From Ignavibacteriaceae bacterium (GTDB lineage: Bacteria; Bacteroidota; Ignavibacteria; Ignavibacteriales; Ignavibacteriaceae), in the NCBI GenBank assembly GCA_019912505.1, contig JAIOIM010000179.1, forward strand, positions 1 to 24,576: a stretch of DNA of 24,576 bases, written 5' to 3'. Below the pieces are notes generated by a model. The model was not told the origin of the DNA. It searched no databases and saw nothing but the letters and a program-made list of their open reading frames with translations. Position 1 is the first letter of the stretch. Each line of letters starts with the position of its first letter. A program made the translations under genes and the position numbers. Shown here one piece after another: positions 8,031-18,673 of this stretch.

Positions 8031-8064
8031 TAAAATAAAAAAGGCGGTCTTAAAAAGACCGCCT
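8031..8064 (-). terminator. Rho-independent terminator of the large surface-protein gene
   Basis: 10-bp stem AGGCGGTCTT/AAGACCGCCT (8042-8064), followed on the minus strand by TTTTTATTTT, 25 nt after the stop codon. Confidence 0.85.
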
Positions 8065-8089: not shown

Positions 8090-11000
8090 TTACTTTAGAA
8101 GCATCATCTTCTTTGTAAAGTTTGTGCTGTTTGTTTTCATGTTGTAGATGTAAACACCACTTGCAAGATTTGCACCGTCGAAATTGACTGTGTATTTGCC
8201 AGGAGCATAATCCATATCAACTAATGTTTTTACAACCTGCCCAAGGATGTTGTAAATTGTTATCGTAATACGTTCGTTGTTGGCAACAGAGAACTCAATC
8301 TTTGTTGAAGGGTTGAACGGGTTTGGATAGTTTTGCTTTAGTTCGAATTCTGTCGGAACAGTTGTTTCGTTCTTAGCATTGCTGATGCCATCAACCATTT
8401 TATAGACCGAGCCTTTACCGGTACCGGCGAACAAAGTATTGTCAGAAGTATTCACTGTAATAGAGCTTACTTCAAATCCGCTCATTCCGGCTTTCTGCCA
8501 GGTTGCGCCATCGTCTTTCGATACTAATACGCCGCCCATCCAGGTACTGACAAATATGTTATTGCTTGCATCGGTATTTACCGAGTATATGTATTGTGAA
8601 GATACATCAGTGTTAACTTTCAACCAGCTATCACCGAAGTTCGTTGAGCGGTAGATACCGCTTCCGTAGGTTCCTGCAATAACTACATTATTAGTTGAAA
8701 CACCAAGTGCATATATAAAATTATAAGCTATGTTTAATCTTACCCAATCTTGACCATCATTTACCGATCTGAACAGACCACCATCGAATGAGCCGGCATA
8801 TACGTAACCATTGCTTGCAACAGTTATGCTGCGGATATTCATTGAAGTAATACCGCCGTTTATTATCTGCCATGTTGCGCCATTGTCAATTGATTTGTAA
8901 ACCCCATAACCCCATGTTCCGGCATAGATGATGCCGTTAGCTGCAACTGTTAACACGCGAATTTCTTTTTGTGATAATTCGGTAGCTGACCAGTTTGAAC
9001 CATTATCGTTTGATAAGTAGATACCTTTTTCAGTAGCTGCAAGTATATTACCATTCTGTGCTGTTGCCATCGACCAAATGTAATCTACACTCATGCCTTC
9101 ATTTATCATAGTCCACGACTCATCTGAAGCCGCACGATAAATAGAGCCTCCCACCGTTCCGGAGAGTAAGTTGCCATTCAGATCATGTGCTAACGATGTT
9201 ATCATCTGATTACTTGTTAGGCTGCTATACTGCTGCCATGAACCCGCCGGTGCTGATGTCTGCTCGGTTCCGCCAACTTTTACGGAAGCTTGAGATGAAT
9301 TGTTCAGCAGATTAGGATCAGTCGGGTATGTTGACTCGATACTAGCCACGTTTACAACTGTCGTATCTACAGGAATGCTGCCGATAAATAATTTATCATT
9401 GAACTGACCTTGTCCCTCGAGGAACTTGCAGATCATTTGTCCGTTCTGTACACCGCTTACAAAATTAACTTTTGCAAGAGGCGCTAGAACCGTTCCTGTA
9501 ATATTTATATATTGAATTTTCAGATACTTTGCTTCGTAGAAGTTGTAAATAACATTCTGAAAAGAAGTACCGTTAACACTTACGCCACCGCTCCATGATG
9601 TACTGTCGCCGTCTATATTAACAAGTACAGCCGAACCATTAGGTGCAGTAATTGAGAAGTTGTTAGCTGTTGAAAGCATAGTACCGTCTACGTGGAATAC
9701 GTTTAATACAGGGTTAGTACCTGCGAGGAAAATGCCGCCCCATTGGTAAGTGGTAGTACCGTTATTGGTATATGCACCAAGCGTTGCGGACAAGCTTTTC
9801 AGATATGCTTCGGCTGCTGTAAAATCAATAACCGAATCTTTTCTAACTGTACCATTTGTAGTACTTACACCGTAAATAGGTAGGTTTGTGGAGTTGCCAT
9901 AAACCACATTTCCGGCACATACGGCACCGCTTGTAAATGTTAAATTGTTGCCAACTACTAATACATCTTCCTGACCGTAAGGATATGCGGGGAGTTTGTC
10001 GCCTACGCTATATTGAGCTAGCTGAGCATTTCTACCAACTGCCATTTTACCTTCAGTATCGGCGGAAGGCTGAGTAACATCATAAAGTACAAATACATTA
10101 AATCCTTCAGCATCGCCAAGGTTAAACGAACCTGAACCGCTTGCAGTAACATCAACCTTAACTGTAATTGTTAAAGTTGCATTGGCACCATTAGCTAAGT
10201 TGCCAATAGACCATACTCCGGTAACATCGTTATAAGCACCAACGGTAGCCGAGGAAGAGATAAAATCCACTCCGGCGGGAAGTACATCTGTAACTACTAC
10301 ACCTGTTGCGTCCTTAGGACCCATGTTTGTAGCTAATATTGTATAAGTAACGTTATCGCCGTTTTGTACAGAATCTTTGCTCGCTGTTTTAACAACTTTT
10401 ACATCAGCTTCATTTGGAGGAGGCGGAGGACATATTGTTGGGTTCCAGAATACTTTTTTTGTAATCGGTGTGCCAATAACATTTCCGTCACAATCTAAAA
10501 TAGATACGCCATATTCAACTTCAACCTGTGTATCATTATATCTTATACCAGGCCAGTTAGCTGTAATCTGAAAAGTAGTATCGTTTAATATTTGTGTGTT
10601 TGTATAGTTGTAACCTGTTGTTAAATCAATTGGGAAAACTACTCTCCACCATGTTTGCATCTTTGCTTTTGAAGGATTTGGTGTATGAGTAACCGAGCCG
10701 CCGACTATTACAGGCTGTGGAGTTTCATAACAAACTGGTTCATCAAGTCCCAGCGTTCCGTTCCAGCCGGTAACACAAGGAGTAAGGCTATAAATACCAG
10801 CGTCCCAAGTCATATCGTCTTCGCCGGCTGCTAAACTTGTACAGGTAGTTTTTCCTGTTAAAACATCAGCGTCAGAATCTTTTGCATCGTTAGAGCCTTG
10901 ATCTTTAGCTGTAAATGCTGAGTTAGCAGGTAACACAAATTCAACATAATAATCACCCGGCACTAAGTTGCCGAATGTGTAAATACCATTTGCATCGGTA

Positions 11001-12586
11001 CTTGTAGTGGAAATAAATACATCTGAACAGTTATATAAATTTACAACTACTCCGGGAACTCCGGCTTCACCGTTGTCTTGTTTACCATTTTTATTTACGT
11101 CGTTCCAAACTTTGTTTCCTATTGAAGCAAACGGAACACCGCAATCGAGATAACCCTGGTTTACAGTGCCATCGTCAAAATTTTCATTTAGTGAAGTTAG
11201 TGCATCATTTACCTGAGATGGAGTATAGGCGCTCGAAGCGCCGCTTATTACCGCGTTGGCAATATCTAAAAGTTCATAAACAGTTTTTCCATAAAAATCA
11301 CCGGAAGCGATAACTAATCTTCCAAGTTCCTGCGGGTTGGTTCCGAGAACACCTGCCGCACTAAAATAGACGTTAATTGTAGCTGCGACTAATTGACCTG
11401 CAAGTACGCCTGCTGAAGTTGTTAAAGGATTAACAAGGCTGCCAGTTAATGTATTTGGAGAGCTTCCAGCCGGCAAAAAATTTCTTATTGCGTCGGAAGT
11501 TAAAAAAGTAGCTTTGTTAGCACCGCTGCCAATAGTTAATCCGGCAGGGAATACATTTGCAAAATTTAGCACTCTAATTCTGCCAGGTCCGCTATTATTT
11601 GGGCTTCCCCATCCACCCTGTGTCTGGGTTCTAAATCCGTTAAGGTCGCATAGTTCGGGAGTATACCAGTTAACACTTCCGGTAACTGAAAGATTAGCGA
11701 TAGTGGGAGTTGCAAGAACCAATTTCTGATATGTGTCAGGGTCAGTGCTATGGACATACCTTGTTCCGTGAGGAATAACCACGTTAGCCGTTGCTGTAAT
11801 GGTTGCCGAACTTAAACTGCCTTGAGAAAGTGTTACAACCGGTGTTGCACCACTTGCTGTTGTAGTAGCAGAAGCAGTTGAAAGAACACCATCTGATGTA
11901 CTTAAGGCTACATTAATATTTGAAAGCACATTTCCGTTTATATCGAATGCTGAAACAGTAAATGATGCCGAGTTGCCAATAGATACTGATTGAGTTGAGG
12001 GTGTTATTAACAGGGTATAAACAGGTATTACACTACCCGCATTTGAATTTGCGTCTGCAATTAGTGCAAGTGCACGGGTTTTAACATCTGCAACATTAAT
12101 AGTATTAACATTTAATCCATCGCTAAAATACCAAATAGCTGCCTGAATAGCAGCGGCTTCTTTTTGAACCGAAGATGCCCCGCCGGGATAACCGTAAGGA
12201 TTATGCGGATAATAGTTATTTAATAAATAGGTAATTTGTGCCGGTGTGCTGCCATCATCAGTATATGTGTGAGGTTGCCCTACCGTCCAGAAAACCAAAA
12301 AGTGTTTGATGTCGATACAGTAAAAATTTGCGTTATTGCCGTCAATTGTACCACTTAATGTACCGGCGAAACTTGATTGCGAATTATTAGTGTATGGGTT
12401 TGTATAAGTAATGTTAGTTCCTTTGTCGGTAGCCAATACTTTTGCTACGCTTGAACCTTCAATACCATTTGGGGATTGAAAGTACTGTGGAGGAAAATTT
12501 GTTTCTACTACTTTTTTTGTTTCCTGAGCAAATCCTATCGAAACAAGAAAAAATAGGGACAAGACTGTAAGAAGATTTCTGATCAT
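8090..12586 (-). CDS. Large multidomain T9SS-secreted surface protein/adhesin (putative Cys-Gln thioester domain, SdrD-B, DUF11, choice-of-anchor A, Asp-box propeller, T9SS CTD)
   Basis: Sec signal peptide (aa 1-20). FYCID (Cys90), AIQAAIW and YQKLV (Gln287). ASIGNKVWNDVNKNGKQD (SdrD-B). ADVKVVKTAS...VTYTI.ATN.GP.DATGVVVTDVLP (DUF11). FNVFV...DTEGKMAVG (choice-of-anchor A-like). Five S-x-D/N-x-G-x-x-W Asp-box-like repeats. FELKQNYPNPFNPST...KKMMLLK CTD. Confidence 0.85.
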   Translation of the reverse strand: MIRNLLTVLSLFFLVSIGFAQETKKVVETNFPPQYFQSPNGIEGSSVAKVLATDKGTNITYTNPYTNNSQSSFAGTLSGTIDGNNANFYCIDIKHFLVFWTVGQPHTYTDDGSTPAQITYLLNNYYPHNPYGYPGGASSVQKEAAAIQAAIWYFSDGLNVNTINVADVKTRALALIADANSNAGSVIPVYTLLITPSTQSVSIGNSASFTVSAFDINGNVLSNINVALSTSDGVLSTASATTTASGATPVVTLSQGSLSSATITATANVVIPHGTRYVHSTDPDTYQKLVLATPTIANLSVTGSVNWYTPELCDLNGFRTQTQGGWGSPNNSGPGRIRVLNFANVFPAGLTIGSGANKATFLTSDAIRNFLPAGSSPNTLTGSLVNPLTTSAGVLAGQLVAATINVYFSAAGVLGTNPQELGRLVIASGDFYGKTVYELLDIANAVISGASSAYTPSQVNDALTSLNENFDDGTVNQGYLDCGVPFASIGNKVWNDVNKNGKQDNGEAGVPGVVVNLYNCSDVFISTTSTDANGIYTFGNLVPGDYYVEFVLPANSAFTAKDQGSNDAKDSDADVLTGKTTCTSLAAGEDDMTWDAGIYSLTPCVTGWNGTLGLDEPVCYETPQPVIVGGSVTHTPNPSKAKMQTWWRVVFPIDLTTGYNYTNTQILNDTTFQITANWPGIRYNDTQVEVEYGVSILDCDGNVIGTPITKKVFWNPTICPPPPPNEADVKVVKTASKDSVQNGDNVTYTILATNMGPKDATGVVVTDVLPAGVDFISSSATVGAYNDVTGVWSIGNLANGANATLTITVKVDVTASGSGSFNLGDAEGFNVFVLYDVTQPSADTEGKMAVGRNAQLAQYSVGDKLPAYPYGQEDVLVVGNNLTFTSGAVCAGNVVYGNSTNLPIYGVSTTNGTVRKDSVIDFTAAEAYLKSLSATLGAYTNNGTTTYQWGGIFLAGTNPVLNVFHVDGTMLSTANNFSITAPNGSAVLVNIDGDSTSWSGGVSVNGTSFQNVIYNFYEAKYLKIQYINITGTVLAPLAKVNFVSGVQNGQMICKFLEGQGQFNDKLFIGSIPVDTTVVNVASIESTYPTDPNLLNNSSQASVKVGGTEQTSAPAGSWQQYSSLTSNQMITSLAHDLNGNLLSGTVGGSIYRAASDESWTMINEGMSVDYIWSMATAQNGNILAATEKGIYLSNDNGSNWSATELSQKEIRVLTVAANGIIYAGTWGYGVYKSIDNGATWQIINGGITSMNIRSITVASNGYVYAGSFDGGLFRSVNDGQDWVRLNIAYNFIYALGVSTNNVVIAGTYGSGIYRSTNFGDSWLKVNTDVSSQYIYSVNTDASNNIFVSTWMGGVLVSKDDGATWQKAGMSGFEVSSITVNTSDNTLFAGTGKGSVYKMVDGISNAKNETTVPTEFELKQNYPNPFNPSTKIEFSVANNERITITIYNILGQVVKTLVDMDYAPGKYTVNFDGANLASGVYIYNMKTNSTNFTKKMMLLK

Positions 12587-16921: not shown

Positions 16922-18673
16922 TTATTTTAATAGGATCATTTTGCGGGTTTTCGAAAAATTGTCCGATGTTAATGTATAAAAATAAATTCCGGAGACGAGT
17001 TTGCTGCCGTCAAACTTAACTGTGTGTTTACCGGATTCTAACAAACCGCTTACAAGTGTTGCAACTTCCTTACCGAGAACATTAAATACTTTTAAACTTA
17101 CAACAACTCCGCTTGTTGAAGAATGCGCGCTTTCTGTTTGAGGTACTGCAAAAGTTATTGTTGTTGTCGGGTTAAAAGGATTTGGAAAATTTTGAGCAAG
17201 AGAAAATTCAACCGGTGCGATGATAACAGTTACTTCTTCGGCAGAATAGTCTTTTTTATTCCCGTTAAAATCAATCTGAACTAATTTGTATTTATAACTT
17301 CCTTCGCCCAACGATTTATCAACAAAGCTGTAATAGTTTTTTTCTGATGATGTTCCGCTGCCTTTAACAAATCCTGCGAGAATATATTCTTCACTGTTTT
17401 CATATTTTCTGTAAACTTCAAATCCATAATTGTTTGTTTCGGTTGTTGTACTCCAGTTTAAGTTGACCTTGCTGCCATTTACAGAAGCGGTAAATGGATT
17501 TAATTCAACCGGCACATTGCTGTAAAATCTGTTAAACAATTCGTCCCAGTATTCCTGGCGGTCGCCATCGTATCCAAGCGCCCACATACCAACACCACGA
17601 TAATTTTTCGATTGTGCAAGTGCGTATTTTAATCCTAAACTCGAATCAGTATCGTACCAGATTTGATTCCACACTCCGCCCGACTGAAAACGATACCAGG
17701 GTGTTTTATGTGCGGCTGACCATAGCACGCCGTAAGTAGGTCCGTTAACAATATCATTTTTAAAACGTGTTGAACCTACGTATGAAATAACAGATGAACC
17801 CGCGTTTTGAGTTTCGGTAGTCCATTTAAGCCCGTAATAAGGAACACCAAGTATCAATTTATTTGCGTTGTTTGGAATAATACCGCCGTATTGCGTGTTA
17901 ACTGTATTTGTAATGTTTATACTTCCTCCTGTAAGCGGGGCACAAGGTCCGGTTGTTGTACTCCAACTTCCGTAAAAACTGTAGCCCATAATAAAAATGT
18001 AGTCGCAAGCATTTGCAAGACCGGGTAAATCCCATCCGCCCCAATTAACTGCGGGTCCGGCAAAAGAAATTTCTGCCTCAGGTCTTTGAGCTTTTATGTA
18101 TGTGCTTAAATCAGCCATAAACGAATTAATCAGTGCACCTCTATCGGCTGTATTCAAAGATTCAAAATCAACATTTACACCATCAAGACTATATGAGTTT
18201 AATCTGTTTAAAACATTACTGAAGAAATTTTGTTTTGCACTATTATTTGTTAATAAATTATGAATATCGCTTGCAGTAAAGTTTACAGCGGTTAAAATAA
18301 CCTTTACACCATTTTGATGAGCCGCGTTGATAACATCTGTCCAAGGCCAATAAGCAGGATTTGTTATATTTCCTGTGCTGCTTATTTCAAAATCGAAAGC
18401 AGAGATGTGAGTTAGTATATCATATCTTAAATAGTTTCTTGCTGTTTGATATTCCCAATCGGGTAAGTAACCATATATAGCAGTTCCGTTACGTCCAGAT
18501 TTATCAAATTGAAGCGGAACTATTCCTTCGCCGTTTGCCGGAAATTCTGAAGGCAGTTCATCCGTTATCCCGTATTGCAGGTTATCGAAATAGTGGATTG
18601 AGTTTAACTGTCCATACGCAGAAAAAGTTATGATCAAAAATAAAGCAGAAGTTATTAGAGTTTTTTTCATCAT
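16922..18673 (-). CDS. Secreted glycoside hydrolase family 18 protein with an FN3-like module and T9SS CTD
   Basis: Signal peptide; GH18 motifs LDGVNVDFE, FIMGY, LGVPYYG and GVGMWALG; NVPVELNPFTA module; AQNFPNPFNPTT...TRKMILLK CTD. Confidence 0.9.
   Translation of the reverse strand: MMKKTLITSALFLIITFSAYGQLNSIHYFDNLQYGITDELPSEFPANGEGIVPLQFDKSGRNGTAIYGYLPDWEYQTARNYLRYDILTHISAFDFEISSTGNITNPAYWPWTDVINAAHQNGVKVILTAVNFTASDIHNLLTNNSAKQNFFSNVLNRLNSYSLDGVNVDFESLNTADRGALINSFMADLSTYIKAQRPEAEISFAGPAVNWGGWDLPGLANACDYIFIMGYSFYGSWSTTTGPCAPLTGGSINITNTVNTQYGGIIPNNANKLILGVPYYGLKWTTETQNAGSSVISYVGSTRFKNDIVNGPTYGVLWSAAHKTPWYRFQSGGVWNQIWYDTDSSLGLKYALAQSKNYRGVGMWALGYDGDRQEYWDELFNRFYSNVPVELNPFTASVNGSKVNLNWSTTTETNNYGFEVYRKYENSEEYILAGFVKGSGTSSEKNYYSFVDKSLGEGSYKYKLVQIDFNGNKKDYSAEEVTVIIAPVEFSLAQNFPNPFNPTTTITFAVPQTESAHSSTSGVVVSLKVFNVLGKEVATLVSGLLESGKHTVKFDGSKLVSGIYFYTLTSDNFSKTRKMILLK

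Follow-up and report, generated by a model that had tools for sequence, protein, structure and literature searches.

Can a bacterium with two membranes carry an adhesin that grips its target through a covalent thioester, and by what route would such a protein reach the cell surface? Thioester domains (TEDs) have been treated as adhesin domains of Gram-positive bacteria, namely Firmicutes and Actinobacteria (Miller 2018; Gago-Cordoba 2021; Monzon 2021/2022). The question is raised by a stretch of 24,576 nucleotides (nt) that we analysed as a whole and call the window (contig JAIOIM010000179.1, positions 1 to 24,576), which belongs to the Ignavibacteriaceae metagenome-assembled genome (MAG) GCA_019912505.1. 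The MAG is 85% complete in 831 contigs, and the DNA of the window is found in bioreactor metagenomes. According to the list of open reading frames (ORFs) and their translations, the minus-strand ORF 8090..12586 of this window encodes a multidomain protein of 1498 amino acids (aa) of the secreted surface type, with a TED in its N-terminal part and a sorting domain of the type IX secretion system (T9SS) at its C-terminus. We consider it likely that this is a class II-like thioester domain on a T9SS-anchored surface protein that acts as a covalent adhesin, in which the Cys-Gln bond would form, the domain would be displayed at the tip of the molecule, and the bond would react with a target.

The protein belongs to the TED family by profile search. 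The Pfam TED model PF08341 matches residues 88-180 with 41.7 bits (E 1.7e-10, cut-off 22), which is far beyond chance, and the score is 44.8 bits with aa 40-330 alone and 46.5 bits in a scan of the genome, where this TED is the only one in the MAG. An initial annotation of the window, made from the letters of the sequence, had already placed the region in this family, and the hidden Markov model searches agree with it. Its positions were also accurate, both for the codons of Cys90 (TGT, 12319-12317) and Gln287 (CAG, 11728-11726) and for the range 11657-12424, which corresponds to aa 55-310. All three published TED motifs are present as YCID, IQAAIW and YQKLV. The annotation had listed FYCID, a helix of the TQ type and YQKLV, of which the first and last stand as given; the helix (aa 144-156, AAAIQAAIWYFSD) does match the TQ type, but with Ile in the position where Thr is usual. 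Outside the bond pair, no residue of the TED motifs is universal (Miller 2018). Cys90 is the sole Cys within aa 1-312.

Searching the PDB with the single sequence produced no significant match (E 0.5), and family profiles were needed to reach structures there. The profile of the N-lobe (A2) reached Cpa-TED1 (4C0Z, E 2.7e-6), FNE (5DCQ, 4.2e-5), BaTIE (6FWV, 1.1e-4) and SfbI (5A0L), and in these alignments the YC of the family falls on the YC of the PDB matches. For 5A0L this Cys is residue 49 of the chain and corresponds to Cys109 of SfbI. In the single-sequence search, whose matches were not significant, YQKLV falls on YQNLL of SfbI, and by the numbering offset of 5A0L, YQNLL holds Gln261, the bond Gln of SfbI.

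We then turn to the predicted structure, which bears on the class of the domain. An AlphaFold2 model of aa 22-335 built from the family alignment A1 has a predicted local distance difference test score (pLDDT) of 90.3 and a predicted template modelling score of 0.84. It consists in order of N-terminal strands, with Cys90 at the end of strand 63-69, three helices of which the second carries IQAAIW, the strands of a beta-sandwich (model residues ~169-250 plus 274-287), a hairpin (254-258 and 268-270) whose second strand begins with Gln287, and a long closing strand. The two best matches of the model in the PDB by Foldseek are the class II domains EfmTIE86-TED (6FWY, E 1.3e-10) and BaTIE (6FWV, E 5e-9). 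VIA-align gave Z scores of 16.2 for 6FWV and 14.3 for 6FWY, each with 234 residues aligned, followed by the class I domains of Cpa (2XI9, Z 12.3, root-mean-square deviation (rmsd) 3.5 Å, model residues 20-278 on chain residues 382-587) and CpTIE (5A0G, Z 11.7, rmsd 3.2 Å, model residues 25-274 on chain residues 101-275). In class II TEDs, helix 3 and strand P are joined not by a short linker but by an insertion of ~75 residues folded as a beta-sandwich, and the P-Q hairpin brings the Gln back to the head (Miller 2018). The model and its alignments have this arrangement, with a sandwich after helix 3 and a hairpin that returns to the head, so that the class II-like assignment of the initial annotation holds up. 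The linker between signal peptide and domain is a different matter, since the annotation had set the domain immediately after the signal peptide, whereas ~25 low-confidence residues intervene in the model.

The class I alignments extend across the insertion, and the hairpin is therefore part of the head. Their ends offer a way of locating the bond Gln in the model. In Cpa this residue, reportedly Gln575 (Pointon 2010), lies 12 residues short of the aligned end and falls on model residue 266, which is Gln287. In CpTIE it is Gln267 (Walden 2015, PMC4450167), 8 residues short of the aligned chain end, and falls on model residue 266 as well. Provided that the last aligned segments are free of gaps, both alignment ends would place the bond Gln at Gln287.

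What had been described in the initial annotation as a Thr/Ser-rich beta segment between the motifs is indeed a beta segment, and its identity can now be corrected to an immunoglobulin-like (Ig) domain. The family profile matches the Ig domains of intimin (6TPL) with E 3.7e-15 and also those of invasin and of phage tail-tube Ig decorations, and VIA-align places the sandwich of the model on intimin and invasin at Z scores of 11.5-11.7 and 2.2-3.0 Å, with Ig matches covering model residues 166-290. On the strength of these profile matches and structural alignments, the class II-type insertion is a recognisable Big_1 domain of the intimin/invasin type. The Pfam Big_1 model itself matches residues 206-268 weakly (21.2 bits, cut-off 34.9), and it comes close to its cut-off at the corresponding position in the distant relatives P0074 and P0096, which have transmembrane (TM) or LPXTG anchors.

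The initial annotation had made its reading depend on whether the two residues are conserved in homologs, and they are. We used aa 40-330 as the query of an exhaustive HMMER search, which yielded 386 cluster representatives at E <=1e-3, 59 of them at E <=1e-30; alignment A1 comprises 105 full-coverage domains. Cys90 is conserved in 102 of the 105, Gln287 in 101 and Asp92 in 98, while Gln148 and Trp152 of the helix motif are invariant. The exceptions at the Cys90/Gln287 positions are four T9SS proteins of ~470 aa, which have Cys/Arg (P0065), Ser/Arg (P0068), Ser/Pro (P0084) and Phe/Pro (P0132) and form one clade in a quick maximum-likelihood tree (SH-aLRT 95). The Gln has been lost in all four and the Cys was then lost in three, in at least two events, with one member retaining it. 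This linked loss is the pattern expected if the Cys is kept solely for its partnership with the Gln; as the four sequences make up a single clade, the evidence is suggestive rather than statistical. These proteins keep the signature of the TED fold and are probably non-reactive derivatives.

The same four copies show that the fold persists in this family without the pair, which lends something to the view that the protein has the TED fold without a thioester and serves as a non-covalent binder or structural cap, its Cys and Gln being kept for packing. We regard this as unlikely: Cys and Gln, together with the helix Gln and Trp, are the best-conserved residues of the domain, the Cys decays in the clade once the Gln is gone, and the bond was present in all 12 of the 12 motif-bearing TEDs tested by Walden 2015 (PMC4450167).

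The second half of the question concerns export. The protein carries a type A C-terminal domain (CTD) above the model cut-offs at its extreme C-terminus, and a genome-wide profile scan places it at the same coordinates, 8102..8329. The machinery is encoded in the same genome, with PorU at 738.6 bits (cut-off 420) and SprA at 745.9 bits (cut-off 200), and a type A CTD is present in no fewer than 150 of its proteins. The protein is thus type A T9SS cargo by both its sorting signal and the machinery that accompanies it, as the initial annotation had supposed when it proposed T9SS secretion in a diderm bacterium.

Combining the two halves, we expect the following sequence of events. The protein would be exported by Sec and then fold in the periplasm, where Cys90, in the YCID of strand C, and Gln287 would react spontaneously with loss of ammonia to give a thioester buried beneath the IQAAIW helix. 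Gln287 would sit for this purpose on the hairpin that reaches from the inserted Big_1 sandwich back to the head. The type A CTD would lead the folded protein through the SprA translocon, and PorU would cleave the CTD and join the new C-terminus to a glycolipid of the cell surface. The SdrD-B, DUF11/CLIPPER, choice-of-anchor A and propeller domains would hold the N-terminal TED far from the cell. On contact, the thioester would be attacked by a nucleophile on the target, for which a lysine amine is the likeliest candidate; an isopeptide bond to the Gln287 side chain would result, leaving the cell covalently tethered. In a bioreactor organism this target would probably belong to the surface or matrix of other microbes or of particles rather than being a host protein.

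A thioester could also form and serve chiefly to cross-link the tip domain internally, giving it stability or a mechanical lock, and not as a reactive harpoon. The DUF11/CLIPPER and SdrD-B domains of the same protein come from families that use stabilising internal cross-links, and the access pore to the class II thioester is more than 8 Å deep (Miller 2018). Against this stand the covalent target binding mediated by the characterised bonds, as with SfbI and fibrinogen (Walden 2015, PMC4450167), the inactivation of the pLS20 adhesin by a point mutation predicted to block the bond, and a tip position that suits binding, and we hold such a role to be quite improbable. That Cys90 bonds instead to Gln148 of the IQAAIW helix, an invariant residue to which the older TQXA naming points, is scarcely credible, since the Gln and Trp of TQxx-phi-W merely contact the Cys backbone, the Gln by a hydrogen bond, and are dispensable for bond formation (Walden 2015, PMC4450167; Miller 2018), and since the SfbI alignments set Cys109 and Gln261 opposite Cys90 and Gln287, the residue that the initial annotation had chosen.

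Several observations weigh against a covalent adhesin. The NCBIfam model TQXA_dom (TIGR03934) matches in the right place with 20.8-23.2 bits, below its cut-off of 30.4, and that for the thioester-forming surface-anchored protein (NF012162, surf_Nterm_1) reaches 14.3-17 bits, below its cut-off of 40. The domain shares no more than 12-15% sequence identity with solved TEDs. The overall rmsd to the class II structures 6FWV and 6FWY is high, at 8-9 Å, suggesting that the modelled domain departs from solved class II TEDs in its lobe arrangement or its sandwich. The evidence for expression of the gene is weak: an identical contig of 240 nt covering the 5' coding end (12339-12578) occurs in a metatranscriptome from the same bioreactor study, but it is a single contig and may come from carried-over DNA, and two further small RNA runs gave nothing. 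Finally, a thioester would have to survive its passage through the periplasm. The alpha-2-macroglobulin of E. coli is a periplasmic thioester protein, and a two-membrane cell is thus able to make such a bond in this compartment.

The covalent adhesin that we favour would be built from the domains listed in Table 1. The DUF11/CLIPPER domain scores above the cut-off of TIGR04226, the NCBIfam model for isopeptide-forming fimbrial domains, and together with the TED it makes a possible thioester-plus-isopeptide architecture on a T9SS anchor, as judged from the profile matches.

Table 1. Position in the window of the features of the 8090..12586 gene and its protein
Feature	Residues (aa)	Coordinates	Strand	Basis
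Putative Sec signal peptide (hydrophobic core, ...GFA/QE, typical n-h-c region)	1-20	12527..12586	-	By-eye reading of the translation
TED region	46-310	11657..12451	-	Pfam PF08341, AlphaFold2 model, VIA-align
Cys90 codon TGT in YCID (NFYCIDIK), proposed thioester Cys	90	12317..12319	-	Translation, alignment to solved TEDs
IQAAIW helix motif (TQxx-phi-W type)	147-152	12131..12148	-	Gln148 and Trp152 invariant, 105/105
Big_1-type Ig beta-sandwich inserted after helix 3; last strand (aa 293-310) closes the sandwich	191-272	11771..12016	-	Profile and structure matches
P-Q beta-hairpin from sandwich back into head, bears Gln287	273-292	11711..11770	-	Model strands 254-258, 268-270
Gln287 codon CAG in YQKLV (DTYQKLVLAT), proposed thioester Gln	287	11726..11728	-	Translation, conservation, SfbI alignment
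Conserved alpha/beta domain without family match	313-482	11141..11650	-	Invariant Cys313 and Cys482 at its ends
SdrD B-like stalk domain	487-598	10793..11128	-	Pfam PF17210, 130.9 bits
DUF11/CLIPPER, possible isopeptide stalk domain	728-814	10145..10405	-	PF01345, 97.2 bits; TIGR04226, 32 bits (cut-off 30)
Choice-of-anchor A / pAdhesive_15, directly after DUF11/CLIPPER	823-1063	9398..10120	-	PF20597, 175 bits; TIGR04215, 183 bits
BNR/Asp-box (Ycf48- or sortilin-like) beta-propeller region	~1120-1400	8387..9229	-	NF045728, NF010237 and BNR, all sub-threshold; Sortilin-Vps10 in homologue P0002
Type A T9SS C-terminal sorting domain	1420-1495 of 1498	8102..8329	-	PF18962, 41.9 bits (cut-off 27); TIGR04183, 41.2 bits (cut-off 23)
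Intrinsic terminator-like hairpin, 10-bp stem and T tract		8042..8064	-	26 nt past the stop of 8090..12586

No Pfam family matches the domain that follows the TED (aa 313-482). Across 83 homologues it shows 17 invariant columns, among them Cys313 and Cys482, which could form a disulfide, and a TFTQGGWG motif. Its alpha/beta model has a pLDDT of 91.5, and a comparison with solved structures gave nothing below E 1 by Foldseek and a top VIA-align Z of 4.2 over 48,161 chains. Predicted domains that resemble it are confined to T9SS or SdrD-B proteins that are themselves uncharacterised.

How does this protein compare with known systems? The class II TEDs of BaTIE (6FWV), EfmTIE86-TED (6FWY), SaTIE-TED and the pLS20 conjugation adhesin share with it a head of beta-barrel and three helices, a beta-sandwich that separates helix 3 from strand P, the Gln on the P-Q hairpin, and an N-terminal position behind a signal peptide, putative here, in a protein that continues into stalk domains and a C-terminal signal for covalent anchoring. 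The Cys-Gln spacing is also similar, at 197 residues here, 204 in EfmTIE86 (Cys88-Gln292) and 188 in pLS20 p34. In contrast to these domains, the present TED has a two-membrane host, a T9SS CTD and PorU in place of LPXTG and sortase, an insertion that is detectably of the Big_1 intimin/invasin type, and I-Q for T-Q. Class I TEDs (SfbI-TED 5A0L, CpTIE-TED 5A0G, Cpa 2XI9/4C0Z) share the head fold (Z 11.7-12.3, rmsd 3.2-3.5 Å), the three motifs and, in the profile alignment, the thioester Cys, but their linker is short at the position of our Ig insertion, and they have an extra helix alpha-0 (Miller 2018).

TIE proteins are defined by a TED, a secretion signal, a cross-linked stalk and LPXTG (Walden 2015). 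The present protein has no LPXTG and ends in a T9SS CTD, and its partner domains, namely choice-of-anchor A, the Asp-box propeller and the aa 313-482 domain, also set it apart from them. By analogy it would be TIE-like in its working, but it lies outside the TIE family as defined. The T9SS-anchored fibrillar adhesins of Bacteroidota, which are Por_Secre_tail cargo with DUF11/CLIPPER domains, likewise have stalk domains and a type A CTD, together with a signal peptide such as the one read by eye here. A 2025 survey of isopeptide domains (PMC12617251) describes a DUF11/CLIPPER isopeptide bond in a Gram-negative adhesin and finds that such domains often occur with Por_Secre_tail. The difference lies in the thioester domain, which in the literature searched has not been reported on such proteins; our searches for such a domain in connection with type IX secretion, Ignavibacteria or Bacteroidota brought up no paper on the subject. 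The warhead is a known one, but its envelope, anchoring system and ecological setting are new, visible in automatic Pfam annotation and undescribed in the literature searched.

Alpha-2-macroglobulin and complement proteins, including ECAM of E. coli, have a Cys-Gln thioester too, formed within CxEQ, in a fold and motif that are unrelated. A thioester of this type was considered for the present protein and rejected: 0 of its 11 Cys stand in a CxEQ context, and matches to bMG3 and MG10 are weak, below cut-off and located on Ig-like parts of the stalk.

The initial annotation had called for a homolog search to see how widespread proteins with a TED and a T9SS CTD are, and they proved to be widespread in Ignavibacteriales. 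Among 104 representative homologous domains, 52 are in proteins that end in a T9SS CTD, 12 have TM-plus-basic or LPXTG-like tails, and 40 are in fragments or have other endings. Of the 120 closest clusters listed (90% identity, from public genomes and metagenomes), almost every one has PF08341 together with PF18962, and choice-of-anchor A and DUF11 usually accompany the pair. The taxa of these listed clusters are Ignavibacteriaceae, Melioribacteraceae, Ignavibacterium, Melioribacter and Stygiobacter, and close relatives carry the labels Ignavibacteriaceae or Ignavibacteria. By Pfam, P0002, P0017 and P0056 have both TED and CTD above the cut-offs, and the stalk of P0017 consists of 14 SdrD_B repeats. 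In public databases the listed clusters are named 'choice-of-anchor A family protein', 'SdrD B-like domain-containing protein' or 'hypothetical'. These names presumably omit the thioester domain because the NCBIfam scores are sub-threshold, and with only choice-of-anchor A or SdrD-B mentioned, the feature is easily overlooked.

Across the order Ignavibacteriales, 201 species genomes were sampled, and the TED exceeds its cut-off in 112 of them and in 57 of 86 genera, usually with 1-3 copies per TED-positive genome in ORFs of 760-2260 aa. Orthologues are also present in several of the sampled genomes that are complete. Among 401 genomes across the phylum, just two weak TED matches in one family were found outside this order. 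In the quick tree, a branch with a support of 98 separates all T9SS-linked domains from most of the domains with other anchors.

Homologues with YCID or FCID and IQAAIW, and with C-terminal membrane anchors, were also seen in MAGs of Anaerolineae, Methanobacterium, Methanobacteriaceae and Methanomicrobiales. Secreted proteins with FCID, YCID or YCTN and IQAAIW are encoded at L025:5347-7068, L026:5446-10401, L028:2028-3773 and L027:616-2169, from MAGs of Methanomicrobiales, Methanobacterium, Methanobacteriaceae and Anaerolineae. Two archaeal homologues finish in a hydrophobic anchor and a basic tail. Judging from the motifs and predicted anchors, the thioester module appears to cross both domain and envelope boundaries.

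Covalent adhesion probably occurs beyond the Gram-positive pathogens as well. If the bond forms in this protein, covalent adhesion extends to two-membrane bacteria of non-host habitats such as activated sludge and biofilms, anchoring by PorU is the functional counterpart of sortase for a 'thioester plus isopeptide' adhesin, and the family offers new self-reactive domains that could be used as protein-ligation tools. We see the chances as evenly balanced for a broader proposal, in which covalent thioester adhesion would be a general tool of environmental microbes. The same module would then be mounted on LPXTG/sortase, T9SS CTD/PorU or archaeal C-terminal anchors, and its use in Ignavibacteriales would be lineage-wide, for covalent attachment to cells, flocs and particles in biofilms and bioreactors.

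The 8090..12586 gene looks monocistronic, since it has its own ribosome-binding site (AGGAG, 8 nt before the ATG) and a terminator after its stop. Its neighbours encode a zinc-ribbon protein, an ABC-F ATPase and the rnf operon, for which a link to the adhesin gene is not evident. A second T9SS type A CTD in the window, with 41.9 bits, lies at 16934-17188 on the minus strand, at the end of the 583-aa ORF 16922..18673.

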